Shown here: positions 4,445-52,169 of the stretch, in pieces
Position numbering within the stretch: position 1 is the first letter of the stretch
Layout of the letters: each line of letters opens with the position of its first letter
NCBI GenBank assembly: GCA_002410925.1
Contig: DHPR01000010.1
Location: 30,295-94,294 of the forward strand
Direction: 5' to 3'
Source of the DNA: a bacterium UBP13_UBA5359
Lineage (GTDB): Bacteria > UBP13 > UBA5359
Length of the DNA: 64,000 nucleotides
Position numbers and translations under genes: made by a program
Notes under the pieces: model-generated
Database searches by the model: none
What the model was told of the DNA's origin: nothing
Seen by the model: only the letters and a program-made list of their open reading frames with translations

Positions 4445-4930
4445 ATGAATAAAGAGATTATTGCCTCCGATTCGTCATCCATAGTCGATCGTCCGGACTG
4501 GGATAGATATTTTATGGAGATAGCAGGGGTGGTAGCCAGGCGAGCCACCTGTATGCGGCGCCGTGTGGGAGCCATTTTAGTTAAGGATAGGCGTATTCTG
4601 ACCACGGGGTATAATGGTGCGCCGTCCGGGTTACGGCATTGCAGAGAAGCAGGCTGCCTAAGAGAGCGTCTGGGGGTTCCTTCCGGTGAACGGGCGGAGC
4701 TCTGTCGCGGGCTGCATGCTGAGCAGAATGCCATTATTCAGGCTGCCTTACATGGTGTCCCTATAGAAGGCTCCGTCTTGTATTGTACCAATCAGCCTTG
4801 CACCATGTGTGCTAAAATGCTGGTGAATGCCGGTGTCAGGCGTATCGTCTTTACCGGCTCTTATCCTGATGAATTGGCTATGGATATCCTTGGCGAAGCC
4901 GGGGTAGAGATAATGATATTTAGGGGTTAA
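4445..4930 (+). CDS. dCMP / cytidine deaminase family protein (ComEB-like)
   Basis: Zinc-binding HAEQNAI and PCTMCAKML motifs. Confidence 0.8.
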
Positions 4931-4931
4931 T

Positions 4932-5885
4932 ATGGATTCCTCCATTTACTATGCTATATCCTTTATGGTGGCATTGATTGCATCTTTATTTCTTACACCG
5001 CTGATACGCTTTATGGCTGCCCGGTTTGGTATAGTTGATCATCCTCAATCACGCAAGGTACATAAGGAGCCGGTGCCCCTCTGGGGAGGATTGGCTATTT
5101 ATGCCGCTTTGGTTGTTGCAGTGACGGGTATCTCCATTTTGAGCGCTACGACAATGACCATGCTGATCGAAGGAATAATCGTCGGCGGGGCTTTTATCGT
5201 GGTTGTCGGTATGGTGGACGATGCTATCGGCATGCCGGCACGTTTGAAACTTGCCTTTCAGATAGTGGGCGCACTGATACTGATAGGCTTCGGCATAAGG
5301 ATAGAGCTGCTATCCAATCCCTTCAGCGGCGGATATATTTATCTGGGTTACTGGGGAATATTGATAACCATTTTCTGGGTAGTGGCTGTTACCAACGCCA
5401 TAAACCTTATCGATGGCCTGGATGGATTAGCTTCGGGGTTATCATGCATAGCTGCAATAGCCTTTTTTATTCTCTCTCTTAAATTTGGTCATCTTTCAAT
5501 CTCGATTATCTCCATGGCTCTTGCCGGGGCCTGCCTGGGCTTTCTCAGATACAACTTTAATCCGGCCAGTATATTCATGGGAGATACCGGCTCAATGCTG
5601 CTTGGTTATGTGTTGGCTGCTATCTCGGTAGCCGGAGCTTTTAAAGGTGCCGCCGCTGTCATGCTGACTTTACCGGTTATAGTATTGGGATTGCCTATCT
5701 TTGATGTCTCTTTTGCTATCTTGCGTCGTTTGCTTAAAGGTAATCCTATATTCCAGGCGGATAAGGGGCATCTGCATCACCGGCTGCTGAATAGAGGCCT
5801 GTCCCAACGCCGGGCCGTCATGGTATTATATATTATAGGTATAGCCTGCAGTTTGTTGGCTGTATATCTGTCTACTCTCCATTGA
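4932..5885 (+). CDS. Polyprenyl-phosphate N-acetylhexosamine-1-phosphate transferase (WecA/TagO/MraY family)
   Basis: Multi-TM protein with the NAINLIDGLDGLA motif. Sits next to a UDP-GlcNAc 2-epimerase. Confidence 0.7.
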   Translation: MDSSIYYAISFMVALIASLFLTPLIRFMAARFGIVDHPQSRKVHKEPVPLWGGLAIYAALVVAVTGISILSATTMTMLIEGIIVGGAFIVVVGMVDDAIGMPARLKLAFQIVGALILIGFGIRIELLSNPFSGGYIYLGYWGILITIFWVVAVTNAINLIDGLDGLASGLSCIAAIAFFILSLKFGHLSISIISMALAGACLGFLRYNFNPASIFMGDTGSMLLGYVLAAISVAGAFKGAAAVMLTLPVIVLGLPIFDVSFAILRRLLKGNPIFQADKGHLHHRLLNRGLSQRRAVMVLYIIGIACSLLAVYLSTLH

Positions 5886-5974: not shown

Positions 5975-7156
5975 ATGGAAAGTCCGAGACCAGCAACCGT
6001 ATTTACAGGACACCGGTCCCGGCCTAAAATAGCTGTAATCTTCGGAACCAGACCGGAGGCCGTCAAGATGGCTCCGGTGGTAAAAAGCTTTCAGGCGGAG
6101 GATCGCCTGGAGACCATCGTCATTGTCACTGCTCAGCACAGAGAGATGTTGGATCAGGTCATGGCCACCTTTAATATCAGTGCCGACTATGATCTCGATA
6201 TTATGTCTCCGGGGCAAAGCCTGGCGACTCTTACCAATCGTGTGCTAACCGGTATTGATGGCTTACTGCAGAAAATCTGTCCGGATATGATATTGGTCCA
6301 GGGAGATACTACCACCGTCTTTGCCTCCTCACTGGCAGCCTTTTACAACAAAGTGGCTATTGGTCATGTGGAGGCCGGGCTACGTACGGATGATAAATAT
6401 AACCCCTTCCCCGAAGAGATAAATCGTCGTCTTACCGGAACTATGGCAGATATACATTTTGCTCCTACTACTGTTTCACGGGACAATCTTCTGAATGAGG
6501 GAGTTCCTGCTGAGCGGATAATGGTTACGGGCAATACCGTTATCGATTCATTGATGATGGTGGCAAGCAGATCTTATTCCTTTGCCGGAGGAGAACTGTC
6601 CCGGCTGGAGAAGCATCCCGGCAGAGTGGTCCTGATAACGGCTCACCGCCGTGAAAATTGGGGTGCCCCCATGCAGCGCATAGTTCGCGTACTGGCTCGG
6701 CTGGCATATCGTTATTCCGATACCCTTTTCGTTTTTCCTATGCATCGCAACCCGGAGGTGCGCAGGGTCATAACCGGTGAATTGGCTAACCTGAGTAACG
6801 TTATGCTGGTAGAGCCGCAGGATTATGAACCTTTTATTCACCTCATGAAACGCAGCCATCTTATTATTACCGATTCCGGCGGCGTTCAGGAAGAGGCCCC
6901 ATCGCTGGGGATTCCTGTGCTTGTATTGCGCGAGCGCACCGAACGTCCGGAGGCAGTGGAAGTGGGCACTGTTCGTCTGGTAGGCACCGATGAGGAAAGT
7001 ATCTTCATACAGTCGGTTGAGCTGATGGATAGCGATGAAGCCCACCGAAAGATGTCAGGAACAGCCAACCCCTATGGCGACGGCAAATCAGCAGAGCGCA
7101 TCTTGGCCGGAGTTATACAATATTTCGGCCTGGAAGTTGCCGGCAAAGAGAATTAA
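5975..7156 (+). CDS. wecB: UDP-N-acetylglucosamine 2-epimerase (non-hydrolysing)
   Basis: IFGTRPEAVKMAPVV and HVEAGLRT motifs. True start may lie downstream of the ORF-track start. Confidence 0.85.
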   Translation: MESPRPATVFTGHRSRPKIAVIFGTRPEAVKMAPVVKSFQAEDRLETIVIVTAQHREMLDQVMATFNISADYDLDIMSPGQSLATLTNRVLTGIDGLLQKICPDMILVQGDTTTVFASSLAAFYNKVAIGHVEAGLRTDDKYNPFPEEINRRLTGTMADIHFAPTTVSRDNLLNEGVPAERIMVTGNTVIDSLMMVASRSYSFAGGELSRLEKHPGRVVLITAHRRENWGAPMQRIVRVLARLAYRYSDTLFVFPMHRNPEVRRVITGELANLSNVMLVEPQDYEPFIHLMKRSHLIITDSGGVQEEAPSLGIPVLVLRERTERPEAVEVGTVRLVGTDEESIFIQSVELMDSDEAHRKMSGTANPYGDGKSAERILAGVIQYFGLEVAGKEN

Positions 7157-7243
7157 CGGCTTTTCGAAACGGTAACAGCAGCATAATCATTTTTATCACA
7201 GGTTTTTTGGCAGATATGTTGAATAATTGAAGTAAGGCCTGGC

Positions 7244-7275
7244 GGCCGGAGAGCTCTCTCCGGCCGGGCTGCTTT
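7244..7275 (+). terminator. GC-rich hairpin (GGCCGGAGAG/CTCTCCGGCC) followed by a T-rich stretch, downstream of wecB
   Basis: Perfect 10-nt inverted repeat followed by GCTTTTGT, seen directly in the sequence. Confidence 0.35.
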
Positions 7276-7296
7276 TGTAATGGCGGAGGTGGTTAT

Positions 7297-7725
7297 ATGA
7301 AGTATAAATCAATTCTCGTTCCGATCAATGGTGCCGATTATGCGGAAGAAATGATTGACTTGGCTTGTAAGCTGGCAGATCGGGATGAGGCTGAGCTTCA
7401 TGCTTTATATGTTTTTGTCGTTCCGCGAACACTGCCCATCGATGCTTCGGTTCCTGCAGAAGAGAATAAAGGCGCAGAGATACTGGCCCGTGCAGAAGCT
7501 GCCGCCGCCTCTGCCGGCGTAAGCATCAGGACGCATTTCTATCAATCCCGTTCTGCCGGAGTATCCGTTTTGGATGCCATTGAACGTTTACAGGCAGATC
7601 TTGTTATTCTGGGCGTAAGCGGTGAACCTCGGGTGGGTGGTATATTCTTTGGCACCACAACCGATCTTGTTTTAAAAAATGCGCCCTGCCGGGTATTGAT
7701 CGGCAGAGCCGGCATGGAGGATTGA
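7297..7725 (+). CDS. Universal stress protein (UspA family)
   Basis: About 140 aa with the Usp fold pattern (ILVPINGADYAEE ... LVILGVSGEP ... VLKNAPCRVLI). Confidence 0.7.
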   Translation: MKYKSILVPINGADYAEEMIDLACKLADRDEAELHALYVFVVPRTLPIDASVPAEENKGAEILARAEAAAASAGVSIRTHFYQSRSAGVSVLDAIERLQADLVILGVSGEPRVGGIFFGTTTDLVLKNAPCRVLIGRAGMED

Positions 7726-32344: not shown

Positions 32345-34726
32345 TTGCGGGGTCTGACTATGACAGGATTTCGATTCGAGTATATTCTTTTGCTTATCGT
32401 AGCCGCTCTTATATCGGCTGCGGTTATAGCTTTGTACCGCCGGCGTTTGACCAAGGCTCTTATTGTTGTTCCGGGTGCTGAAGAGAATCCATTTGAAGCT
32501 GAGACAGCCTTGCTTCAGCTGCTATCAGGCCCGGCCCTTTCGCCGGACAAGATAGAACTACAACTACAGAAGCGCATCGGAGAGCTATCGCTCCTTTTCA
32601 GCCTGGGGCAATCTCTTGCGCATACAGCAGACTCGGAGCATGCCGTACAGACTATTATTTCTTATACTATGCATATATTGCAGGTTAAAAGATGTATCTG
32701 CCTAAAATATAATGAAGTTCGCGATATAATTGATATCGATGGATATCATGGTTTGAGCCGCTTATTCTTATCCGCTTACCGCTCTTGCCCGCCTGATGAA
32801 ATTGTGAGCATGGCTATTCATGAGGGGCGCACCATCAAGGTGGCTTTAGAAGATGATCTCATGGCCGGCAAGCACAAGCTGTACAAAGCTGAAGGCGTTG
32901 GCGGGCTTCTTGCCGCACCGCTTATTTATGGCGGCAGGCCCGCGGGCGCATTGTTGGTTTTTTCCGATCAAGATGAGAATTTCAAGCCCGAGGCCGGAAG
33001 GCTGCTGACCAGCGTGGCGCATCAGGCGGCTGCTGCGGTTCGAAATACGGCGTTATGCTCGAAGTTGGAGATGCGTAACCAGCAGATTGCTGCTCTGAGT
33101 GATGTTTCCGGGGCTATAAATTCTCTGATGGTGCTTGAAGCCGTGATGCAAAAGATATTATGGTCGATAACATCCATCTTTGAGGCTCGCGCCTGCCTGC
33201 TCTTTCTCTTTGATGAGAGAGAGGAACTGCGACTGGATTCATATTGCGGTTATACAGTGAAAGACCTGCCCGATGAGCCGATCAAAAGAGGACAGGCTGT
33301 AACGACGGTTTTGGCTACAGGCAATCCGCAGTCTGCCGGTTACGAGGAGGCTCCGGAAATATTTGAACTTATCAGTTATCCCGACAATTGCCTGGCAGTA
33401 TTGCTGCCTCTGGCTATCAAAAACAGGCCTGCGGGTATTATGGCTGTAGTCTTGCCCTTTGATCATCCTCTGACGATGGATGACCGAGCTCTTATGATGA
33501 CCTTTGCTACTCAGGTGGCCATTGCGATAGAGAACAATCAACTTTATGACAGCATGGAGCACCGTATAAATGAATTGACAACACTGGTGCGCGTGGTAGC
33601 ATCGATAGCATCTACACTGGATTTAAAGTTTGTTCTGGATACGATAGTGCAATTGGCGGCACATGTTATGAATGGTGCTCTCTGCTCTATTCGTCTCATA
33701 GATGAAGAGAGCGGCACATTGAAGATATTTTCCAGTCTGGGAATGAGTGAGAATCTCTCCGGTGAGTATGGCGACCGAAGTAAGGGTGAGGCGTTGAGTA
33801 TCAGTGTGATTGAGGACGGCAGGCCGGTTATAATACCGGATGTTGCTATTGATTTCCGTTTAACTGCACATGGGAAAGCTGATAATCACGGCTTGCACTC
33901 TTACCTGGGAGTGCCTCTTATATGTCAGGGTGAAACTATAGGTGTTCTGGAGATCTATTGTCGTTACAGGAAACAGTTCAATGAGGCGGAAGTCAGGCTT
34001 TTCTGGGCTTTTGCCGACCAGGCGGCTATCGCCGTGCATAACGCACGGCTCTTTGATCAGGTTCAAAATTACTCTCGTCAATTGAGCGTAATTATGCAGG
34101 AGGTCCACCATCGCGTCAAAAACAATCTTCAGGCAGTAGCGGATTTGCTTTCGCTGGAGATGCTTCAAACTGCCGGCAGGTCCTCCCATGAGATTTTGCA
34201 CAATAGTATCAACAGAATAAAGAGCATTGCAGCCGTTCATGATTTGCTATCGCATGAAGATGTTGAACTGACCGATATGAAGCACATTTCCCAGAGGATT
34301 ATGGATATTGTCGAGGATATGGTCGACTCAGGAAAAAAGGTATGCTTCAGCATTACAGGCAGCAGGATATTCCTGCGTTCAAAGCAGGCTACCTATCTGG
34401 CGCTGGTATTAAACGAGCTATTGGTAAATACTATCAAGCATGCCTTTGAAGGTAAAGAAAAAGGCCGGGTCAGCGTTGAAATGAGCGAAGAAGAGCGCTT
34501 TGTTTCTCTGGTGGTCAGGGATGACGGAAAGGGTATACCTGAAGGCTTTGACATCGATTCTCACAGTCATCTGGGATTGCAGATAGTTCGCAATCTGGTA
34601 GAGCGTGACCTGCACGGCACCCTAGCATATCATAATGATCAGGGTGCCGTATGGAATATAAGATTTGCTAAGGATATGAAGGAGGATAAATTCGCTGTCT
34701 ATGGGAATGAAGGTAGTAATCGCTGA
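32345..34726 (+). CDS. Sensor histidine kinase with N-terminal TM segment, tandem GAF domains and HisKA_2 + HATPase_c
   Basis: H-box HHRVKNNLQAVADLLSLE (HisKA_2 type) and a C-terminal ATPase region. Repeated GAF-like blocks. Confidence 0.75.
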   Translation: MRGLTMTGFRFEYILLLIVAALISAAVIALYRRRLTKALIVVPGAEENPFEAETALLQLLSGPALSPDKIELQLQKRIGELSLLFSLGQSLAHTADSEHAVQTIISYTMHILQVKRCICLKYNEVRDIIDIDGYHGLSRLFLSAYRSCPPDEIVSMAIHEGRTIKVALEDDLMAGKHKLYKAEGVGGLLAAPLIYGGRPAGALLVFSDQDENFKPEAGRLLTSVAHQAAAAVRNTALCSKLEMRNQQIAALSDVSGAINSLMVLEAVMQKILWSITSIFEARACLLFLFDEREELRLDSYCGYTVKDLPDEPIKRGQAVTTVLATGNPQSAGYEEAPEIFELISYPDNCLAVLLPLAIKNRPAGIMAVVLPFDHPLTMDDRALMMTFATQVAIAIENNQLYDSMEHRINELTTLVRVVASIASTLDLKFVLDTIVQLAAHVMNGALCSIRLIDEESGTLKIFSSLGMSENLSGEYGDRSKGEALSISVIEDGRPVIIPDVAIDFRLTAHGKADNHGLHSYLGVPLICQGETIGVLEIYCRYRKQFNEAEVRLFWAFADQAAIAVHNARLFDQVQNYSRQLSVIMQEVHHRVKNNLQAVADLLSLEMLQTAGRSSHEILHNSINRIKSIAAVHDLLSHEDVELTDMKHISQRIMDIVEDMVDSGKKVCFSITGSRIFLRSKQATYLALVLNELLVNTIKHAFEGKEKGRVSVEMSEEERFVSLVVRDDGKGIPEGFDIDSHSHLGLQIVRNLVERDLHGTLAYHNDQGAVWNIRFAKDMKEDKFAVYGNEGSNR

Positions 34727-35276
34727 TGATGAAGCAATAAGATTGATGACGCTTAAAGCTCAATTGACCAACCTGGGGCATCAGGTAGTGGGTGATGCTT
34801 GCACCGGTGAGGAAGCTATCGAGATGATAGTTAAGACCGCACCCGATCTGGCTATTATGGATATTCGCATGCCCGGTTTGGATGGTATTACGGCGGCTCG
34901 TAAAATAATGGAGATTCACCCTATCCCCATAATTATACTTACGGCCTACAGCGAACGAGAGCTGGTCAAATCAGCTACGGATGCGGGAGCCTTTGCTTAT
35001 CTCATAAAGCCTGTATCAGAGCAGGACTTGATGCCGGCTATAGATATGGCTATTTCTCGTTTCAAGGAACTGGATTTTCTCAGGCGCGAAGTCGGTAACC
35101 TCAATCGGGCTCTTGATGTACGGTCTGATGTTGAAAAGGCTAAAGGTATCCTTATGGAGCGTTGCCGTGTGGATGAAGAGAAAGCTTTCAATATGTTGCG
35201 ACAAAGGAGTAGCCAGGAGGGAATGAAGGTAGTCGATATCGCGCGTGCTATTATTATGGCGCACAAACTCTTTTAG
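34707..35276 (+). CDS. ANTAR-domain response regulator (REC + ANTAR RNA-binding antiterminator)
   Basis: REC domain (VVIADDE ... MDIRMPGLDG) and C-terminal ANTAR (VEKAKGILMERCRVDEEKAFNMLRQRSSQEGMKVVDIA). Overlaps the kinase gene. Confidence 0.8.
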   Translation: MKVVIADDEAIRLMTLKAQLTNLGHQVVGDACTGEEAIEMIVKTAPDLAIMDIRMPGLDGITAARKIMEIHPIPIIILTAYSERELVKSATDAGAFAYLIKPVSEQDLMPAIDMAISRFKELDFLRREVGNLNRALDVRSDVEKAKGILMERCRVDEEKAFNMLRQRSSQEGMKVVDIARAIIMAHKLF

Positions 35277-36392: not shown

Positions 36393-36725
36393 ATGGATAA
36401 GAGGATAGACAGGCAGATGGATCTTAAGGTTGAAGTTGTCTATGAAGAGGGCAATCCATATGTCAATCTTTCGGGTGAAATGGATGTCTACACTTCGCCC
36501 AGAGTCAAGCAGGCGGCACTGAATCTTATTGCCGAGGGCAAGCATCATTTGATCTTCGATCTTACCAGAGTGGATTATATAGATACCGCCGGCCTGGGAG
36601 TGCTGGTGGGCATCCTCAAAAGAGCCAGGGAAGTTGGCGGGAATGTTGAACTCTGTTATTCCGATCAGGTAAAGAAAGTTTTTGAAATAACCGGATTGAA
36701 TAAGATATTCTCTATCAGAGAATAA
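36393..36725 (+). CDS. STAS-domain anti-sigma-factor antagonist (SpoIIAA/RsbV-like)
   Basis: 110 aa STAS fold with the conserved DYIDTAGLGVL segment. Confidence 0.75.
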   Translation: MDKRIDRQMDLKVEVVYEEGNPYVNLSGEMDVYTSPRVKQAALNLIAEGKHHLIFDLTRVDYIDTAGLGVLVGILKRAREVGGNVELCYSDQVKKVFEITGLNKIFSIRE

Positions 36726-36837
36726 ATTTATTTTGCACTGTGCAGGAAATCAAAATTTTACGTCGAATAATTAATTTAGCCGATTAAATTGAATATGGGT
36801 GCCTATGACGCGGGTGCCGGCTTGTGAAGGCCTTAAT

Positions 36838-36873
36838 GATCGCCTTCTCCATTTTGGGGGCGGTCTTTTTTTA
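36838..36873 (+). terminator. Intrinsic terminator candidate: 7-bp stem with GU pair followed by T7
   Basis: GATCGCC ... GGCGGTC hairpin followed by TTTTTTTA, between the two STAS genes. Confidence 0.45.
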
Positions 36874-36902
36874 TCCGCTCCAGTAAAAACGGAGGTAATA
36901 TC

Positions 36903-37277
36903 ATGAAGTCTTTCTTTCCCCTGAGCATATCCGTTTCCGGAGAAGCCGTATCACGTGTTAAGCTTAAAGGTGAACTGGATGTCTATACCTCTCCAAAGCT
37001 CAGCGCAGTCCTGGGCGACCTTCTGGAACAGGGATGCATCCATATTATTCTGGACTTAGGTCGGCTGCAATTTATAGACAGCGCCGGCCTTGTTACTCTT
37101 GTAAGGCATAATGAAGAAGCCGCCAGAGCAGGCGGCAGCCTGATATTGCTGGACCCCGGCGCCCAGCTGAGAAAAGTGCTCAGGCTAACAGCTTTGGACC
37201 GTCATCTGCGGATAGAATTCAGCGCTGTGCGGAACAAGGAGACGGCTCCCCAAATGAAGGGGGCGGGTTATGCTTGA
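36903..37277 (+). CDS. STAS-domain anti-sigma-factor antagonist, second copy
   Basis: STAS pattern (KLKGELDVYTSPKL ... LQFIDSAGLVTLV). Confidence 0.7.
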   Translation: MKSFFPLSISVSGEAVSRVKLKGELDVYTSPKLSAVLGDLLEQGCIHIILDLGRLQFIDSAGLVTLVRHNEEAARAGGSLILLDPGAQLRKVLRLTALDRHLRIEFSAVRNKETAPQMKGAGYA

Positions 37278-37632
37278 GACGACAATATCTCTGCCTGGAA
37301 TGGATAAAGAGGCCATGCTTCTATGCGATAAAGGCATGAACTCCTTTCTGAAACTGGATATAATTCTTTTTTATCACAACAAGCGGTTATCCGATGCTGA
37401 TATAAATGAGCTTGCTCGCTATACGGGCAGATCACCGGTAGAGGTTGGAGATGCCGTATCGGCTTTGATCGAAGATGGCTTGCTGGAGTTATCTTCCAAT
37501 CGCAATGAAAGATACAGGCTTAGCGGTTTTCCCGATATCCCCAGGCTCTTGAACAAGTTCCTGGAAGCGTATAATCGATTGCCTCAGCGGCTTGCCATCC
37601 TGTCCAAGTTCTTGCGTGAGAATAGGTATTAG
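37270..37632 (+). CDS. Hypothetical protein, possible winged-helix domain
   Basis: 120 aa, no recognisable catalytic motif; overlaps both neighbours, suggesting co-translation in the partner-switching operon. Confidence 0.3.
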   Translation: MLETTISLPGMDKEAMLLCDKGMNSFLKLDIILFYHNKRLSDADINELARYTGRSPVEVGDAVSALIEDGLLELSSNRNERYRLSGFPDIPRLLNKFLEAYNRLPQRLAILSKFLRENRY

Positions 37633-39307
37633 CTGCGGGAATAGGGCGGGTGAAGAATTGAACGAAGATCTTCTCAGCGCATTGCGGAAATACTTTGAGC
37701 TCATGGCTGCTGCAGCACATCCGGGAAATATGAAGCAGGCATTTGCCGATATATTGGATAATACGATATCGGTTTTATCGGCAAACGGCGCGGCACTTTA
37801 TGCGAATACAGGCTCTGAAACTATGGGTGAGATCTTCATATGCAGAGAATTGCCGGATAATCTGTGTGATGAGCTGCAACGGCTCGGAGGTGCTGACAGC
37901 CTCAATGCGGATGCCAGGGAGGAGAACGTGAAAAGGGTCGACGGCGGCTTTTTGTATTCAGTGCTTATACGTCAAAAGCCGGTAATATGTCATCTCTTTG
38001 TATTGTATGAAAAGTGGCTTCCGGGTGAAGCCGAAAAGAAGGTGGCCTGCTCTCTGGCCGAGCTCTTTCTGGCATTGATATGCGAGCAAAGCCATTATCG
38101 GGAATTGGAGCAGCGTATGTATGAGAGCGTTGCTTTAGCCAGTATCGGGCGTACTATCGTTTCCACACTCGATATGGAAAGGGTCCTCAATCAAGTTGTC
38201 AAAATGGTTGCCTATGTAATGAACGCCGCCGTCTGCCTGATTGTTCTTTATGACGAAGAGGAAGGAGAACCGGCAGTGGGAGCTGCTTTCGGTATGGAAC
38301 GATTGGAAGAGAGTTCCGGCATTGTACGCCACGCGATAAATATATACAAGAGGGTGGAAGCGTTGCATAACGGTATTGATTGCAATACTGCAGAGAAATA
38401 CCTGGGCAGATTATGCTATATGGCGGTTCCACTCTTCTCCGGTGAGAGGATCAACGGAGTCGTAATTGTATACAGGGAAGAGGCTTTTTTTGAACATGAA
38501 AGGTCACTGATGCAGGCAACCGCTGCTCAGGCCTCGATTGCCCTGGAAAACGCACGCTTGCACAGCAGCCTGGCATCATTTACAGAACGTGAACTGCGTT
38601 TGGCTGCCGGAATACAGCAAGGCTTGCTTCCCAGGTCTCTGCCCCATACTGCTCAATACGATTTCGGTAGCAAGATACATTTTATGCGTGAAGTCGGCGG
38701 AGATTATTATGACATAATATCCCTCGGCAACGGGCGGCAAGGCATAAGTATCGGTGATGTATCCGGCAAGAGCGTTCCTGCTGCCATTCTGGTGGCTATG
38801 GCAAAGTACGTTTTGCGTGCTTCAGCAGTGACGGAGAATGACCCTGCGAGATCTCTGGAAGCCGTCAATCGCAATATTATCAATGATCTCTCTCCGGAGA
38901 TGTTTATAAGCATGTTCTATGGAATTCTGAATCTTGCCGATAACAAGCTTGTTTATGCCAATGCCGGTCATGAGCCGCCGCTGCTTTTCAGAGAACGTAG
39001 CCATAGCTGCCGTTTTTTGCAGGCGACAGGCGTAGTGCTGGGCGTAATGAGTAATAGTTCTTATCAGCACGCTACTGTGAAGCTTGAACAGGGTGATTGG
39101 CTGGTTCTATATACTGATGGCGTTACTGAGGCCAGGAAGAGCGACGGTGAACTTTTCGGCAGCCGTCGCGTTTGTGAAGCTCTTGAGCGCAATCATCATA
39201 TGCCTGCTCAGATTATGGCGGAGTATCTCTTCAAGGAGGTTTATGATTACTCCACCGGTAAGATAAGCGATGATGTAGCAATTCTGGCGATTAATAGAAT
39301 TGAATAA
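37592..39307 (+). CDS. GAF-domain PP2C-type serine phosphatase (RsbU/SpoIIE family)
   Basis: C-terminal SpoIIE/PP2C block (VGGDYYDII ... GDVSGKSVPAA ... LYTDGVTEA). The N-terminal start is uncertain because the ORF overlaps the upstream gene. Confidence 0.8.
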   Translation: MPSCPSSCVRIGISCGNRAGEELNEDLLSALRKYFELMAAAAHPGNMKQAFADILDNTISVLSANGAALYANTGSETMGEIFICRELPDNLCDELQRLGGADSLNADAREENVKRVDGGFLYSVLIRQKPVICHLFVLYEKWLPGEAEKKVACSLAELFLALICEQSHYRELEQRMYESVALASIGRTIVSTLDMERVLNQVVKMVAYVMNAAVCLIVLYDEEEGEPAVGAAFGMERLEESSGIVRHAINIYKRVEALHNGIDCNTAEKYLGRLCYMAVPLFSGERINGVVIVYREEAFFEHERSLMQATAAQASIALENARLHSSLASFTERELRLAAGIQQGLLPRSLPHTAQYDFGSKIHFMREVGGDYYDIISLGNGRQGISIGDVSGKSVPAAILVAMAKYVLRASAVTENDPARSLEAVNRNIINDLSPEMFISMFYGILNLADNKLVYANAGHEPPLLFRERSHSCRFLQATGVVLGVMSNSSYQHATVKLEQGDWLVLYTDGVTEARKSDGELFGSRRVCEALERNHHMPAQIMAEYLFKEVYDYSTGKISDDVAILAINRIE

Positions 39308-43582: not shown

Positions 43583-43607
43583 GCCGGGCACATACTATGT
43601 GCCCGGC
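43583..43607. terminator. Bidirectional GC-rich hairpin between convergent genes
   Basis: Perfect palindrome GCCGGGCACATA-C-TATGTGCCCGGC between the ricT stop and the minus-strand DUF378 stop. Confidence 0.5.
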
Positions 43608-45824: not shown

Positions 45825-46361
45825 TTAACTCGGATAGATGATCCTATCTATAAGATGATACTGGAGCGCCGCTTCAGGGGTCAGATAGTAATCCTTCATA
45901 GTATCTATGCTGACCTCCTCGATGCTTTTGCCCGTATGGTGAGCAATTATGCTGTTCAATTGATGCTTCAGTCTGACGATCTCCAAGGCTGATGTTTCTA
46001 TCTCGCTGGCAGTACCAAAGGCTTTCCCGGAAGGCTGATGAATCAGCATGCGCGAGTTCGGCAGTGCAAAACGTTTCTCGGGGGCACCGCCTGCTAGAAC
46101 AATGGCTCCCATGGAACAGGCCTGCCCTACGCAGACAGTGATGACGTCGGGTTTGACGGTCTGCATAACATCATATATAGCCAAACCGGCCGTCACCAGT
46201 CCTCCAGGAGAATTAACGTATAGAGTTATATCCTCTGTCGGGTTTTCACATTCCAACTGAAGAAGCTTATCAATGATTTCATAACTGCTGGAATCATTAA
46301 TCTCCCCCTTGAGAAGGACTATACGTCTGTTGAGCAGATCCGAAGATTTATTGTCATGCAA
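45825..46361 (-). CDS. clpP: ATP-dependent Clp protease proteolytic subunit paralog, short N-terminus
   Basis: Catalytic Ser in GQACSMG, His in MLIHQP and a conserved Asp region. TTG start with an AAGGAAG RBS. Lacks the canonical N-terminal axial-loop residues. Confidence 0.8.
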   Translation of the reverse strand: MHDNKSSDLLNRRIVLLKGEINDSSSYEIIDKLLQLECENPTEDITLYVNSPGGLVTAGLAIYDVMQTVKPDVITVCVGQACSMGAIVLAGGAPEKRFALPNSRMLIHQPSGKAFGTASEIETSALEIVRLKHQLNSIIAHHTGKSIEEVSIDTMKDYYLTPEAALQYHLIDRIIYPS

Positions 46362-46403
46362 GGTCTTTTCTTCCTTTCAATATAGAAGTTTAATGCAAAA
46401 AGT

Positions 46404-46428
46404 TATACACATTGTAACAATGTGTATA
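46404..46428. promoter_or_regulatory. 25-bp perfect palindrome TATACACATTGT-A-ACAATGTGTATA, candidate operator
   Basis: 12-bp perfect arms. Lies 43-67 bp upstream of the clpP-like start and overlaps the predicted -10 and spacer of its promoter. Confidence 0.5.
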
Positions 46429-46439
46429 TGGAGCGTCAA
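46411..46439 (-). promoter_or_regulatory. Sigma-70/SigA-type promoter for the clpP-like gene (-35 TTGACG, 17-bp spacer, -10 TACAAT)
   Basis: Near-consensus hexamers on the minus strand with correct spacing. Confidence 0.45.
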
Positions 46440-46587
46440 TAAATAGACGCCCATAACACAAGAGCCCGCATGTTTAGCTTCAATTTTGCCAGGGTATATC
46501 TAGGCACGGGTAGCTGGCTCTGCATGGTATCCCTTAGGGATCAGCACAGAAATCCGGGTTGAATATTTATGGCGAAATGGAGAACCA

Positions 46588-47472
46588 TTGATGCCGAGTA
46601 TAGGAATTGCCACGGCATATCCGGAGGCTGATTGGCACAGCAGGCAACTTATAGATGCCGCTTCCAGAAGAGCAAAGACCATGGTGATAGATCCGGGAGA
46701 TCTATCAGTCAATATCGGTGATTACGGCATATCGGTTAGGACGAGCACCGGCAGCCTCGACGGACTGGACGGGCTGATTCTGCTGCGGGCTATAAACGAA
46801 AAGGGCAATCCGGATCATCAGATAGAGATATATAGAGCATTGAGCGGCGCGGGATTGCCGATGATGAATAATATTCAAGCTGCTTTGGCGGCACAGGATA
46901 AGTTCAGGAGCAGCTTCGCCTTCCGGCAGGCAGGCCTGCCCTCTCCCAGAGTTGTTACTGTTCAAAACTTCAGGGAGGGCGTCAGCTACTTACGAGAGAT
47001 GGGGGAGGTAGTGATAAAGCCGATATATGGATCTCTTGGCGAGGGGATAATGCGTCTTTCTGCAGATGATGAGGGAATATTCTTTTTGAAGAGATATCTT
47101 GAGCGAGATGGAGTAGCATATCTGCAGAAATACATCGACAAACCGAATCGGGACATTAGAGTTTTTGTTATAGGAGGAAGAGCTGTAGCTGCCGTATACA
47201 GGGTGGCGAGTGAAGGAAAATGGTTAACGAATATACACTGTGGTGCTCGGGCTCTTCCTTGCAAGCTCTCTTCTGAAACGGAAGCGCTCAGTATAAAGGC
47301 CGCTGCTTCTATAGGTCTGGATTATACAGGGGTTGATATTATTGAAACAGATCGGGGTCCTCAGGTTATTGAAGTAAATGGTTCGCCGCACTGGCAGGGA
47401 GTACATCAGGCTACAGGAAAGGATATAGCCGGCTTGATAGTAGAGCATATGCTGAAGAGAATAGAAGACTGA
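46588..47472 (+). CDS. RimK-family ATP-grasp ligase (alpha-L-glutamate ligase-like)
   Basis: ATP-grasp fold pattern (VVIKPIYGSLGEGI ... YLQKYI ... DIRVFVIGGR ... GVDIIETDRGPQVIEVNGSP). ATG at 46591 is an alternative start. Confidence 0.75.
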   Translation: MMPSIGIATAYPEADWHSRQLIDAASRRAKTMVIDPGDLSVNIGDYGISVRTSTGSLDGLDGLILLRAINEKGNPDHQIEIYRALSGAGLPMMNNIQAALAAQDKFRSSFAFRQAGLPSPRVVTVQNFREGVSYLREMGEVVIKPIYGSLGEGIMRLSADDEGIFFLKRYLERDGVAYLQKYIDKPNRDIRVFVIGGRAVAAVYRVASEGKWLTNIHCGARALPCKLSSETEALSIKAAASIGLDYTGVDIIETDRGPQVIEVNGSPHWQGVHQATGKDIAGLIVEHMLKRIED

Positions 47473-47498
47473 TTTCATTGGGAAAGGGGGTGAAAAGC

Positions 47499-47690
47499 AT
47501 GGCAGAGAATAAGGGCAAGATAACGGTTGGCGAGGCCGGCCATAAGGGCGGGGAGTTGGGCGGTGAAAAGGGCGGAGAGACTACCCGTGAGCGCTATGGT
47601 CATGAATTTTATGAAGAGATCGGCCATAAAGGCGGCCAGAAGGTTAAAAAACTGATTGAAGAGGGTAAAAGAGCATTGGGCGAAAAGTAA
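47499..47690 (+). CDS. GsiB-like KGG-repeat stress protein (hydrophilin), copy 1
   Basis: MAENKGKITVGEAGHKGG ... RERYGHEFYEEIGHKGGQKVKKLIEEGK. Own RBS GGGGGTGA. Confidence 0.8.
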   Translation: MAENKGKITVGEAGHKGGELGGEKGGETTRERYGHEFYEEIGHKGGQKVKKLIEEGKRALGEK

Positions 47691-47777
47691 CTCTATGCAG
47701 AAGCATAATGAGTTTAGCATTATGTGTGAGTCCGTATGTGATTGAACGTAATGCCGGGAAAGAAGGGGGTGAAAAGC

Positions 47778-47939
47778 ATGGCAGAAAACAAGGGCAAGAT
47801 GACGGTCAGCGAGGCCGGCCAAAAGGGTGGAATAACCGTACGGAACAAGTATGGCCATGAATTTTATGAAGAGATCGGCCATAAGGGCGGCCAGAAGGTT
47901 AAAAAACTGATTGAAGAGGGCAAGCGTTCAGGCGGCTGA
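47778..47939 (+). CDS. GsiB-like KGG-repeat stress protein, copy 2
   Basis: MAENKGKMTVSEAGQKGG ... YGHEFYEEIGHKGGQKVKKLIEEGKRSGG; one internal repeat. Confidence 0.8.
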   Translation: MAENKGKMTVSEAGQKGGITVRNKYGHEFYEEIGHKGGQKVKKLIEEGKRSGG

Positions 47940-47996
47940 CTTACAATTCTCGGATAACAGGTTAAATAAGAAAGAATTACGGAGGGGGTGAAAATC

Positions 47997-48278
47997 ATGG
48001 CAGAGAATAAGGGTAAGATGACGGTCAGCGAGGCCGGCCAGAAGGGCGGGCGCACGACCAAGCAGCGCTATGGTCACGGTTTTTACGAAGAGATAGGCAA
48101 GAAGGGCGGGATGACCGTGCGCGATAAATATGGCCATCCTTTCTATGAGGAGATTGGCGGTAAAGGCGGCGAAGCAGTACGCGATAAATATGGTACGCCT
48201 TTCTATGAAGAGATCGGACACAAAGGCGGTCAGAAGGTTAAAAGGTTGATCGAGGAAGGTAAGAAGAGTATGAAATAA
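47997..48278 (+). CDS. GsiB-like KGG-repeat stress protein, copy 3
   Basis: Three YGxxFYEEIGxKGG repeats. Confidence 0.8.
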   Translation: MAENKGKMTVSEAGQKGGRTTKQRYGHGFYEEIGKKGGMTVRDKYGHPFYEEIGGKGGEAVRDKYGTPFYEEIGHKGGQKVKRLIEEGKKSMK

Positions 48279-48370
48279 CCGTAGTTCGCAAACTCATAGC
48301 TCGATCAAAGGCCTGATGGCAGCTTGAATGGTAAATAAGCAATAAATCGAGCATGGAAGGGGGTGAGAGG

Positions 48371-48604
48371 ATGGCAGAGAATAAGGGCAGGATGACGGTC
48401 AGCGAGGCCGGCCAGAAGGGCGGACGCATGACCAGGGAGCGTTACGGTCACGGTTTTTATGAGGAAATAGGGCAAAAGGGCGGCGAGATAGGTGGCGAGA
48501 CCACCAAGGAGCGTTATGGCCATCCCTTCTATGAGGAGATCGGGCACAAAGGCGGTCAGAAGGTTAAAAAGCTGATTGAAGAGGGCAAAAAGAGTGGAGG
48601 CTGA
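48371..48604 (+). CDS. GsiB-like KGG-repeat stress protein, copy 4
   Basis: Two YGHxFYEEIGxKGG repeats and the conserved C-terminus. Confidence 0.8.
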   Translation: MAENKGRMTVSEAGQKGGRMTRERYGHGFYEEIGQKGGEIGGETTKERYGHPFYEEIGHKGGQKVKKLIEEGKKSGG

Positions 48605-48725
48605 TTCATAGCGCATGCCGTGCAACTCATAGCTTGCCAATGTTCTAATCGTTGCTTTGGACGGAGCGTAGAGCAACTGTAAAGGAGCGATGAGGTGCGG
48701 GTACTGAGCAAGGAGGTGATTGCAA

Positions 48726-49085
48726 ATGCCTGAAGAGAAAAAAGGCAAGATGACGGTTGGTGAAGCTGGACAGAAGGGCGGCGAGAGCACTAGTCGCAAA
48801 TACGGCAAGCCCTTTTACGAAGAAATCGGCGAGATGGGCGGGGAAACAACTAAAGAACGCTATGGCCATGAGTTCTATGAAGAGATTGGTCAAAAGGGTG
48901 GCGAAAAGGGTGGCGAAACCACCAGGGAGCGTTACGGCCATGAGTTTTATGAAGAGATAGGTGAAAAAGGCGGCGAGACCACCAGTCAGAAATATGGCAA
49001 ACCCTTCTACGAGGAGATTGGGCACAAAGGCGGTCAGAAGGTTAAAAAGCTGATTGAAGAGGGCAAGAAAGCTGAACATGAATAG
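48726..49085 (+). CDS. GsiB-like KGG-repeat stress protein, copy 5
   Basis: Four repeats. ATG after an AAGGAGGTGA RBS. Confidence 0.8.
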   Translation: MPEEKKGKMTVGEAGQKGGESTSRKYGKPFYEEIGEMGGETTKERYGHEFYEEIGQKGGEKGGETTRERYGHEFYEEIGEKGGETTSQKYGKPFYEEIGHKGGQKVKKLIEEGKKAEHE

Positions 49086-49125
49086 GCTGTGAATTTAAAC
49101 AAAGAATCGATAAGGAGGTGTAAAG

Positions 49126-49344
49126 ATGGCAGAAAAAGGCAAGATGACGGTCAGCGAGGCCGGGCAGAAGGGAGGGCGCACTACCAGGGAGCGTTACGGC
49201 CATGAGTTCTACGAGGAGATAGGTGAAAAGGGTGGAACCACGGTACGTGAGAAGTACGGCACGCCCTTCTACGAGGAGATCGGCCATAAGGGTGGACAAA
49301 AGGTTAAAAAGCTGATTGAAGAGGGCAAGAAGGCCATGGGATAA
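49126..49344 (+). CDS. GsiB-like KGG-repeat stress protein, copy 6
   Basis: Two repeats. RBS AAGGAGGTG. Confidence 0.8.
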   Translation: MAEKGKMTVSEAGQKGGRTTRERYGHEFYEEIGEKGGTTVREKYGTPFYEEIGHKGGQKVKKLIEEGKKAMG

Positions 49345-49440: not shown

Positions 49441-50499
49441 ATGCTGGTAGATATACTAAAAACGAGCCGTTCCATTCTGCTGCAAAAGCTGCCGTCGTTC
49501 GTTTATGGTGCGCCTGAATTGTATGGCCCTCCTGTCTTTATTTATCACCGAATTGATCCTGCAAGCTTCGAGAGGGATTTGAAGTATCTTACCGATAACG
49601 GCTATCTCTTTCTGAATGATGTATGCCTGCAAGCTATTATACAGGGCGATTATCCTTTTACCGGAAGAGAGGTAGCTCTGACCTTTGATGATGGCTATGA
49701 CGATCTATTACAGGTAGCAACACCTCTCTTACGCTCCTACGGCGCGGTTGCTACGGCCTTTATTGTCCCGGGTCTTATAGGATATCCCGGATATCTCAAC
49801 TGGGAAGATCTCTATCGTCTGTCATTATCAGGGGTGATCAGTATAGGTGCACATTCATACCGGCATGCCAAGATATTTGTTTCCGATATATTGGAGCAAT
49901 TTTATGTGCCTGACGATGCCGTAGAAGAGATTATAGTGCGCTGCAATGGATGTGACACTCTTCTATCGGTTGATGGTCGGTATGGCCGACCGTTATATCG
50001 TACCTCCTCCAGGCTGGGCGACCGTCCCAGATATCTGGAAGACGAGCAGCTGACCGCTTTATGCGTAGAGCGCACAGCGGAGATAACCTCCCTGCCGGGT
50101 AGCGAAGCATGGATGCGAGAGCTTTATTCTCTGTGCCGCCTTTACAAGAACAGGTATGGCGGCGGCAGGCTGGAAACATCTCAGGAGCAGGAGAGTGCTG
50201 TGCACGAGGAGCTGGCGTATGCAAAAGAGGTTCTGGAAACAAAGCTGAAGCATCGTATTATTTCACTATGCCTTCCCTGGAATGAGGGTGGAGAGCTGGT
50301 GCGCCGTCTCTGCCGCCCGGCAGGATATGATCTCTGCTTTGCCGGCTATATTGATGGTAATAAATCCAATGCTCCCGGAACAGATCCTTACGCAATATGC
50401 CGCCTAAGCGGAGATTTCGTCAGAACTCTTCCGGGTAGAGAGCGTGTCGGTCTGGCCTCTGTCTTAGCCGGCAAAATAGGAAGAAGGCTGAAGAGCTGA
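49441..50499 (+). CDS. Polysaccharide deacetylase (NodB-homology domain)
   Basis: TFDDGYDD and HSYRH motifs. Start taken at the internal ATG with a GAGAGGAGAG RBS. Confidence 0.7.
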   Translation: MLVDILKTSRSILLQKLPSFVYGAPELYGPPVFIYHRIDPASFERDLKYLTDNGYLFLNDVCLQAIIQGDYPFTGREVALTFDDGYDDLLQVATPLLRSYGAVATAFIVPGLIGYPGYLNWEDLYRLSLSGVISIGAHSYRHAKIFVSDILEQFYVPDDAVEEIIVRCNGCDTLLSVDGRYGRPLYRTSSRLGDRPRYLEDEQLTALCVERTAEITSLPGSEAWMRELYSLCRLYKNRYGGGRLETSQEQESAVHEELAYAKEVLETKLKHRIISLCLPWNEGGELVRRLCRPAGYDLCFAGYIDGNKSNAPGTDPYAICRLSGDFVRTLPGRERVGLASVLAGKIGRRLKS

Positions 50500-52169
50500 T
50501 GGATGAGCACACATTGCATCGGAATCTTGGCAGCTATATTCATCGCTATGAGGAGATAGCGAGTGTACTGGCTCGATATGGATTATATCGTCTGGCTCTC
50601 TCCCTTGGCCTGGGACGCTATGTTCGCTGGCGACCTGAACTTTCTTTTGGAACAGAAGTGCCTCGTGCCGCTGCGATTCGTTTTATACTTGAAGAATTGG
50701 GCCCGGCTTTTGTAAAGATGGGACAGTTGCTCAGTACCAGAGCGGATCTGCTTCCGCCGGATTATATTGATGAACTATCCAAGCTACAGGAAAGCGTTCA
50801 TCCCGAATCTCTGGAGATGGTGCTGCAAACAATCGAGGAGGAGTTTGGCCTAATACCGTTCAGCCGTATATCCGATAAGCCGCTGGCAGCAGCCTCCATG
50901 GGCCAGGTGCATGACGTAACTATCCCGGGCGGCAGAGAGGCTGTGGTAAAAGTGCAACGTCGGGGAATAAGAGAGAGCATAGCGGTGGATGCCGACATTA
51001 TGTTGAGTTTGGCCGGGATTGCCGAACGCCGCTGGGAACGGGCCCGGCTTTATAATCTTAGAGAATTGGTCAAGGAATTTACGGATAATTTGAAAGAGGA
51101 GCTCGATTACTGTAATGAAGGCAAGAACGTAGAGCGTATCAGGGAAAACCTCAAAGATGATAGGAATATATATATACATGGAGTGGAATGGGTATTCACC
51201 ACTGAGCGCGTTCTGACTGTTGAGCATGTGAGAGGAATCAGGATAACGGATACGGTTGCTTTGCGTAATCAAGGGCATAATCTTCAGGAGATAGCGCGCA
51301 ATCTGGTATCCTCCTTTATGGAACAGGTTTTTATCAACGGGTTCTTTCATGGAGATCCGCATCCTGGAAATATAAAGATTATGGATGACGGCAGAATAGC
51401 TTTGCTCGATTTCGGTCTGGTAGGGAGTATAGACCCAGCTATGCAGCGCCGTCTCAGCGATCTCTTTATCGGTTATGTGGAGGGAGATACGCTGCGCTTC
51501 AGCGATGCATTGATAGGTATGGGGTACCGGTGCGGCGAGCTGAATAAAGAGGCGTTTCAGCATGATGCCGAACAGCTTTTACAGGCATATTATAATATGC
51601 CTGTCGAGAGAGTGAGCTTTGCCGGAACTTTTCAACAGGCCATGCGCCTGGCCGGCGATTATCATTTGCTGTTGCCCACTAACTATGCCATATTGGCTAA
51701 AGTTTTTATGCAATTGGAGGGCATCAGCAAGCAATTGGACCGTAATTTCAATCTGCTCGATATCGCCAGGCCCTTTGCTATGCGCATTCTTCGTCGCAGG
51801 CTTATCAGTGTCGGCCCCTCCGCAGGTGTAAATATAAGCAGCAGCCTGGTGGATCTTAAAGATTTTATCATAAATTTGCCCTATTATATGAATAATATCT
51901 TCAGACAGGCGGCTGATGGTAGCTTTAATGTGAGATTTGAGCATCATCACCTGGAAGGCTTTACAGCGCAGCTAAGCAAAATAGGGAATCGTCTGGCCTT
52001 TAGCTTCATTGTGGCGGCGCTTCTATTGAGTACAGCTCTCTTTGCAGAATCCAATTTGGGTCCTTTTATCTTTAACTACCCGTTGTTTGCAGTTATGGGT
52101 TTTGTTCTTTCCGCTTTTGCCGGTGTATGGCTGTTGGTTTCTATAATCAGATCCGGGGAACTGGGGTGA
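50499..52169 (+). CDS. ABC1/UbiB-family atypical protein kinase
   Basis: Kinase-like core (AAASMGQVH ... HGDPHPGNI ... LLDFG) and C-terminal TM helices. Start overlaps the upstream stop. Confidence 0.8.
   Translation: MDEHTLHRNLGSYIHRYEEIASVLARYGLYRLALSLGLGRYVRWRPELSFGTEVPRAAAIRFILEELGPAFVKMGQLLSTRADLLPPDYIDELSKLQESVHPESLEMVLQTIEEEFGLIPFSRISDKPLAAASMGQVHDVTIPGGREAVVKVQRRGIRESIAVDADIMLSLAGIAERRWERARLYNLRELVKEFTDNLKEELDYCNEGKNVERIRENLKDDRNIYIHGVEWVFTTERVLTVEHVRGIRITDTVALRNQGHNLQEIARNLVSSFMEQVFINGFFHGDPHPGNIKIMDDGRIALLDFGLVGSIDPAMQRRLSDLFIGYVEGDTLRFSDALIGMGYRCGELNKEAFQHDAEQLLQAYYNMPVERVSFAGTFQQAMRLAGDYHLLLPTNYAILAKVFMQLEGISKQLDRNFNLLDIARPFAMRILRRRLISVGPSAGVNISSSLVDLKDFIINLPYYMNNIFRQAADGSFNVRFEHHHLEGFTAQLSKIGNRLAFSFIVAALLLSTALFAESNLGPFIFNYPLFAVMGFVLSAFAGVWLLVSIIRSGELG

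Follow-up and report, generated by a model that had tools for sequence, protein, structure and literature searches.

Does the perfect palindrome that lies on the promoter of a clpP-like gene serve as the operator of a dimeric repressor, as an earlier note on this DNA had proposed, or does its symmetry come with the promoter itself? The locus that raises this question belongs to a 64-kb stretch of DNA (hereafter the window, meaning the whole stretch that was analysed), in which the intergenic region 46362-46587 separates two divergent genes, clpP-like on the minus strand and ATP-grasp on the plus strand.

The palindrome and the promoter it covers

The palindrome is real: it spans 25 bp and consists of two arms of 12 nt, 100% complementary and separated by a single nucleotide (Table 1), as the earlier note had described it. 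Symmetry of this kind, expected of the operator of a dimeric repressor, is above chance: a perfect 12+12 repeat with a spacer of 0-5 was found in 0 of 60 simulated 64-kb windows (first-order Markov), and dyads matching at 11 or more of the 12 positions occurred on average 0.77 times per simulated window, the six spacer lengths being summed. The real window contains three perfect 12+12 palindromes with a spacer in this range, at 43583, 46404-46428 and 51581. That at 43583 is a GC-rich terminator hairpin located after yaaT. The one at 51581-51604 (24 bp, ACAGGCATATTA followed by TAATATGCCTGT, 12+12 with no spacer) lies inside a UbiB/ABC1-kinase-like ORF (50499-52169), and its centre reads TATAAT on both strands.

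The second feature expected of a repressor operator, overlap with the core promoter or the start, is also present: on the clpP strand the palindrome extends from about -25 to +1, a span that includes the -35/-10 spacer as well as the TG-extended -10 and the predicted start. A sigma-A-type promoter is recognized by hexamers resembling TTGACA and TATAAT, 16-18 bp apart, upstream of a ribosome-binding site (RBS) and a start codon, and conserved. Here, TTGACG and TACAAT (10/12 matches) are separated by 17 bp, with a TG preceding the -10, conservation in seven variants, an RBS 26 nt downstream of the predicted start and a start codon beyond it. A promoter match of such quality is not above chance in the region (one found versus 1.4 expected); we consider the promoter real because its -35 and -10 are invariant in orthologues, the match score alone being at chance level. 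The near-consensus promoter that the palindrome had been said to overlap is thereby confirmed.

Table 1. Features of the clpP-like/ATP-grasp locus, with positions in the window
Feature	Coordinates	Strand	Basis
Candidate operator, palindrome TATACACATTGT-A-ACAATGTGTATA	46404..46428	.	12+12 repeat; no other copy in window
Promoter-proximal (downstream) arm; 5/6 of the -10 bases plus GTGTATA to the predicted +1; well conserved	46404..46415	-	variant comparison
Promoter-distal (upstream) arm, within the -35/-10 spacer; inner CACATTG kept, outer TATA drifts	46417..46428	-	variant comparison
-35 hexamer TTGACG	46434..46439	-	promoter scan; unchanged in 7/7 variants
-10 hexamer TACAAT (TATAAT in every other lineage); TG extension at 46419-46418	46411..46416	-	scan and variants
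Predicted transcription start, ~46404, about 7 nt past the -10	46403..46406	-	inferred from promoter geometry
RBS GAAAGGAAG for the TTG start at 46361	46370..46378	-	sequence; kept in orthologues
ClpP-like serine protease gene, 178 aa, TTG start at 46361	45825..46361	-	Pfam CLP_protease 3e-66
DnaA-box match TTATACACA, perfect to the consensus TTATNCACA	46403..46411	+	consensus scan
Mirror-arm DnaA-box-like ATATACACA, 1 mismatch to TTATNCACA	46421..46429	-	consensus scan
Candidate sigma-B-type promoter GTTTAG-N14-GGGTAT of the ATP-grasp/KGG operon	46472..46497	+	only strict match in window
RimK-family alpha-L-glutamate ligase (ATP-grasp), first gene of the divergent operon	46588..47472	+	TIGR00768, 189.6 bits vs cut-off 143.4
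Six tandem small KGG/LEA_5-like (GsiB-like) ORFs	47478..49344	+	after the RimK-family gene

The gene served by this promoter is unusual: it encodes a ClpP with an intact catalytic triad and without axial loops, and it lies beside a sigma-B-type stress operon. The Ser-His-Asp catalytic motifs (GQACSMG, IHQP and KD) are kept. Alignment to solved ClpPs starts at residue 7 of the query, which faces residue 20-38 of the various ClpP constructs and corresponds to about residue 20-23 in standard ClpP numbering; the protein therefore lacks the ~20 N-terminal residues that make up the axial loop region. In ClpP, the N-terminal axial loops gate the pore and dock the unfoldase. The protein scores below every NCBIfam ClpP cut-off, and its close relatives, which all come from uncultured 'bacterium' MAGs, form only eight protein clusters (87-100% identity); after these come ordinary ClpPs at 57% identity or less, with no relatives between 57% and 87%. 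Fermentation and other metagenome assemblies contribute 15 contigs that encode the identical protein. As for the host, YaaT places it in Bacillota, where named relatives (Thermincola, Clostridium, Caloranaerobacter) do not exceed about 64% identity. A longer annotation of the ClpP, of 195 aa and extended upstream in frame (P0004, on some contigs), was rejected as an artefact: the window has a stop in that frame, and the added codons begin within the -10.

The palindrome had also been placed between the clpP-like gene and an ATP-grasp/KGG operon. The flanking genes are indeed those, a polysaccharide deacetylase gene also lying downstream of the ATP-grasp gene along with the six KGG/GsiB-like ORFs; the palindrome, however, is not shared by the two units. 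A separate sigma-B-type promoter serves the operon, its -35 starting 44 bp past the palindrome. In the six distinct variants covering this promoter, the hexamers are kept and the spacer is variable. The hexamers agree with the B. subtilis SigB consensus, GTTTAA-N15(+/-2)-GGGTAT; gsiB belongs to the classic members of the SigB regulon (PMC9847131). Together, the promoter and the GsiB-like genes suggest that this uncultured, Clostridia-like lineage of Bacillota has a general stress regulon of the SigB kind. The six KGG proteins share the motif YGHEFYEEIGHKGG and a C-terminal KKLIEEGKK, and we speculate that they are substrates of the adjoining RimK-family ligase.

Conservation across related loci

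The promoter was compared in seven distinct variants, taken from orthologous loci of related MAGs and contigs and from one metagenome match (L045); the set spans 87-100% ClpP identity and amounts effectively to only ~4 independent lineages (Table 2). All seven variants share one and the same -35, TG and -10, the sole exception being the C of TACAAT in the window. This C is derived, since all other variants carry TATAAT, including one (L007) whose ClpP protein is identical to that of the window but whose contig has a coverage of only 2x.

Table 2. Variants of the clpP-like promoter, written in the clpP direction (core, CACATT-N5-AATGTG)
Variant	ClpP identity	-35	Spacer	-10	Downstream	Dyad	Core
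Window		TTGACG	CTCCATATACACATTGT	TACAAT	GTGTATAAC	12/12	6/6
L007		TTGACG	CTCCATATACACATTGT	TATAAT	GTGTATAAC	11/12	6/6
L014 group	96-97%	TTGACG	CTCTATATACACATTGC	TATAAT	GTGTATAAC	10/12	6/6
L011	90%	TTGACG	CCGTGAAGACACATTGT	TATAAT	GTGTATAAC	9/12	6/6
L045		TTGACG	TCCTATATGCACATTGA	TATAAT	ATGTATAAC	8/12	5/6
L041	92%	TTGACG	CGGCCAGACCACGTTGA	TATAAT	GTGTATAAC	5/12	5/6
L013	87%	TTGACG	CTCCAGAACCGCACTGT	TATAAT	ATGTTTATA	6/12	3/6

Such a pattern could arise with no dedicated regulator. The conserved block would then be an extended promoter (TG-extended -10, discriminator and initially transcribed sequence), and the dyad a by-product of an AT-rich promoter, perfected either through drift or through a quasi-palindrome (template-switch) mutation. 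The invariant positions do include all that a sigma-A promoter needs, and promoter-like matches of equal quality arise by chance in the region. Conservation nevertheless continues past the hexamers to an extent that sigma-A promoters normally lack: the 13 nt past the -10, GTGTATAACTTTT, are identical at 13/13, 12/13, 12/13 and 9/13 positions in four diverged lineages, versus 12-14 of 21 (about 57%) for the adjacent 5'UTR. Within the downstream arm, GTGTATA is identical at 7/7, 7/7, 7/7, 6/7, 7/7 and 5/7 positions across the variants. Upstream of the -10, a CACA at about -21 to -18 is kept (4/4, 4/4, 3/4 and 3/4 in four diverged versions) within an otherwise variable spacer, the distal part of which is identical at only 1-2 of 5 positions in three of the four; this also speaks against a promoter and nothing else. 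A block of ~27-31 bp, CACATTGnTATAATGTGTATAACTTTT, which contains the dyad core, is far better conserved than the neighbouring 5'UTR and is under constraint exceeding the needs of a sigma-A promoter.

The symmetry of the palindrome is a different matter. Constraint is distributed asymmetrically, in that it covers the downstream arm but not the outer part of the upstream one. The four outermost bp of the upstream arm (identical at 2/4, 3/4, 0/4 and 1/4 positions in the diverged lineages) evolve like neutral sequence, as would be expected if the dyad were a by-product of the promoter. One pair was gained by the derived T-to-C change and one lost in a sister lineage, again as drift predicts. In the closest pair of lineages, the palindrome changes at the same rate as its surroundings (2/25 positions, versus 9/120 in the remaining intergenic region); the window type and the 96-97% type differ by two substitutions, both within the central 5 bp, which leaves 10+10 unbroken. 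To judge from the variants, perfect 12+12 symmetry is recent and confined to the lineage of the window, where it arose through the change from TATAAT to TACAAT. On the other hand, an ancestral 11/12 dyad centred exactly on the -10 is improbable as a product of chance, given the frequency of such dyads in the simulated windows, and the dyad core CACATT-N5-AATGTG is kept at 5/6 or better in six of the seven variants. As to conservation in orthologues, on which the earlier note had made the operator depend, the promoter is kept throughout, the dyad only in part: its core in most variants, the perfect 12-bp arms in the lineage of the window alone. The functional dyad is probably a core of about 7+7, ACACATT-N5-AATGTGT, rather than the full 12+12. 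On balance, we consider it rather unlikely that the promoter accounts for the whole conserved block with no regulator involved.

A more distant orthologous locus was sought by means of YaaT, and the next relative (L046) was without the whole clpP-like/ATP-grasp island. In the 90% lineage (L011), insertions beside the clpP-like gene have brought in two DUF5665 genes and one for a PfkB kinase (4530-5377 and 6189-7130 of the L011 contig), and the 5'UTR of the ATP-grasp gene, which is variable or partly deleted in orthologues, has a deletion of ~44 nt. These insertions and this deletion indicate that the island is plastic outside its two promoters. In the 96% lineage, a JGI contig (L018) carries a UPF0236-family (transposase-like) gene between the methyltransferase and DUF378 genes (6264-7565).

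Motif matches, further copies and candidate regulators

Seventeen operator consensus sequences were compared with the palindrome region (CtsR, CIRCE, LexA, Fur, PerR, Rex, NrdR, CRP/FNR, OhrR, PadR, TnrA, cre, WalR, DnaA, CopY/BlaI, GntR and AraR). This comparison, suggested in the earlier note as a check, gave no match among the 17 sequences other than the DnaA box. DnaA regulates promoters in B. subtilis, and the arms might bind it as a transcription factor that ties expression of the protease gene to replication status. Indeed, one arm matches the DnaA 9-mer exactly and the mirror arm with one mismatch (Table 1); TTATACACA, the R2 box of E. coli oriC, is exactly kept in five of the seven variants, and the window holds the origin-proximal genes tmk, holB and yaaT. 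Several observations nevertheless make this explanation improbable. There are one or two boxes only and no cluster; matches with one mismatch number 53 in the window, and the count of perfect boxes comes close to chance (4 observed versus about 2 expected). Nor are the boxes conserved as a pair: the upstream one (its TTAT part) is lost in three of the seven variants, and the downstream one is degraded at specified positions in two (L045 and L013). The match is likely a chance resemblance, because it emerged after many motif comparisons. We know of no link between DnaA and ClpP regulation, and the site differs from DnaA-regulated ones in its location, a protease promoter instead of oriC or a known DnaA-regulated gene, as well as in its patchy conservation. 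Elsewhere in the 64 kb, three perfect TTATCCACA DnaA boxes (9842, 31044 (+) and 31599 (-)) are present versus about 0.5 expected; all are inside ORFs and unclustered.

It is most improbable that the arms form, on the minus strand, an RNA hairpin which together with a UUUUU run would act as an intrinsic terminator or attenuator before the clpP-like gene: although the consensus scan flags the hairpin and its ACTTTTT as terminator-like, the predicted RNA fold reaches -10.7 kcal/mol (z = -3.2) and the T-run is conserved, the stem is not GC-rich (only 3 G-C pairs), the U-run is offset by 3 nt, no unit encoded upstream on the minus strand needs termination, and the stem cannot form in the clpP-like transcript because the predicted start of the sole promoter is inside the downstream arm. 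In addition, substitutions in orthologues break pairs uncompensated, leaving 5-6 of the 12 in two lineages; that arm substitutions are never compensatory in the seven variants argues against an RNA stem and is expected for a protein site. An Rfam search of the whole window returned one tRNA only, with no riboswitch or leader in the clpP-like/ATP-grasp intergenic region.

A search for further half-sites had been suggested in order to define a regulon. In the 64-kb window, the 25-mer has no second match with up to 3 mismatches, half-site matches are at chance level, a 10+10 mask scan likewise gives nothing beyond chance, and the 7+7 core does not recur even when 3 mismatches are allowed (1.9 matches expected by chance). 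In GTDB representative genomes, the exact 9+9 pattern ATACACATT-N5-AATGTGTAT has 20 matches. One is the orthologous clpP site (L038, same contig as L017) in the sole related MAG of the set, a genome in which the exact pattern occurs at the clpP locus only. The others are unrelated (Lachnospiraceae, Oscillospiraceae, Gammaproteobacteria and other taxa): 14 are inside longer hairpins whose complementarity extends into the flanks, some of them clearly terminator-like, and the remaining five are bare and at about chance level. A metagenome scan anchored on the neighbouring sigma-B-type promoter gave two matches, namely the new variant L045 and an unrelated locus (L044) adjoining thioredoxin and ribonucleotide reductase genes; its negatives are weak because JGI contigs in which the site is known to be present (L018-L020 and L043) escaped it. 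As neither the 64-kb window nor the related GTDB genome yielded a further copy, a regulon could not be defined; with this coverage, its absence is weak evidence. The arm sequences were also looked for in the literature, where they matched nothing but unrelated eukaryotic or primer sequences.

No transcription factor or other DNA-binding regulator gene was found within about 9 kb of the palindrome, in agreement with the earlier note, which had seen none adjoining it. As a candidate, the vicinity offers just one 120-aa protein, encoded ~9 kb away (37270-37632 (+)), whose winged-helix match (MarR_2/HVO_A0114) is sub-threshold. Its gene belongs to a partner-switching-like module (36393-39307 (+), 7-10 kb off) that also comprises two STAS genes, of the anti-sigma antagonist type, and a gene for a GAF-PP2C phosphatase of the SpoIIE type; the annotated part of the window (about 28.9-63.2 kb) showed neither a gene for an anti-sigma kinase nor one for a sigma factor. 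Further away (32345-35276 (+)), a sensor histidine kinase gene is followed by that of a response regulator whose output domain is of the ANTAR type (RNA-binding antiterminator). The lack of another copy (in the window and the related GTDB genome) and of a regulator (within about 9 kb) also counts in favour of a promoter with no dedicated regulator.

The operator reading and known systems

We favour an operator because of the invariant promoter, the conserved block CACATTGnTATAATGTGTATAACTTTT and the presence of the dyad core in most variants, and we give about even odds to its serving a homodimeric repressor of the helix-turn-helix type. The proposal of the earlier note is upheld by the conservation past the hexamers and by the dyad core; it is weakened by the decay of the symmetry to 5/12 and by the failure to find a further copy. 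Confinement of the full symmetry to one lineage, asymmetric conservation, and the lack of a regulator nearby or of a consensus match also stand against it. In the mechanism that we infer, a dimeric repressor encoded elsewhere in the genome would bind over the stretch from about -25 to +1, which takes in the spacer, the extended -10 and the start site, and the bound dimer would block RNA polymerase at the clpP-like promoter. A signal would free the repressor from the operator, and the clpP-like gene would be switched on. The binding protein, the signal and the site of transcription initiation are all conjectural parts of this scheme, as is repression itself.

If a repressor does bind, a putative accessory ClpP of an uncultured Bacillota lineage would be controlled outside the textbook CtsR/HrcA systems, and a defined 19-25-bp probe would offer a handle for fishing out the regulator. 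It is possible, if doubtful, that the palindrome is the operator of an undescribed clp regulator unrelated to CtsR, HrcA or ClgR, which would control a gate-less, N-terminally truncated ClpP arranged back to back with a sigma-B-type general-stress island made up of the RimK-type ligase and the six GsiB-like KGG proteins. Were this true, it would represent a new stress-proteolysis circuit in an uncultured lineage of Bacillota from anaerobic digesters and fermenters.

How does such an operator compare with known systems? At the clpP, clpC and clpE promoters of Bacillota, CtsR likewise overlaps the -35, the -10 or the start of a clp protease gene, and the expected logic is alike, repression being relieved by stress. 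The sites differ: that of CtsR is a tandem direct heptad repeat, RGTCAAA-NAN-RGTCAAA, whereas the repeat found here is inverted. The CIRCE element of HrcA, an operator located at heat-shock promoters of Bacillota, is an inverted repeat like the palindrome, but with arms of 9+9 and a 9-bp spacer (TTAGCACTC-N9-GAGTGCTAA). In agreement with the earlier note, which had set the palindrome apart from both elements, the consensus sequences gave no match in 46380-46450, either for the CtsR heptad repeat with up to 3 mismatches or for CIRCE with up to 5.

ClgR, in Actinobacteria, is a dedicated helix-turn-helix activator that recognizes a palindromic, GC-rich site at the promoters of clpP paralogues. 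It resembles the present case by its palindromic site at a clpP promoter and differs by being an activator, by the GC-richness of its site and by its phylum. The operators of dimeric repressors of the MarR/OhrR or Fur/PerR type can overlap the -10, and that of B. subtilis ohrA contains TACAAT. The likeness lies in a near-perfect, AT-rich inverted repeat at or next to TACAAT or TATAAT, from which a bound repressor would exclude RNA polymerase sterically; the difference is that the OhrR, Fur, PerR and PadR consensus sequences have no centred match here and that no MarR- or Fur-type gene adjoins the site. A palindrome over the -10 is among the commonest regulatory layouts in bacteria, and the present case touches no long-standing open question. 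Seen against these systems, the palindrome is an ordinary candidate operator, another instance of a very common kind of element.
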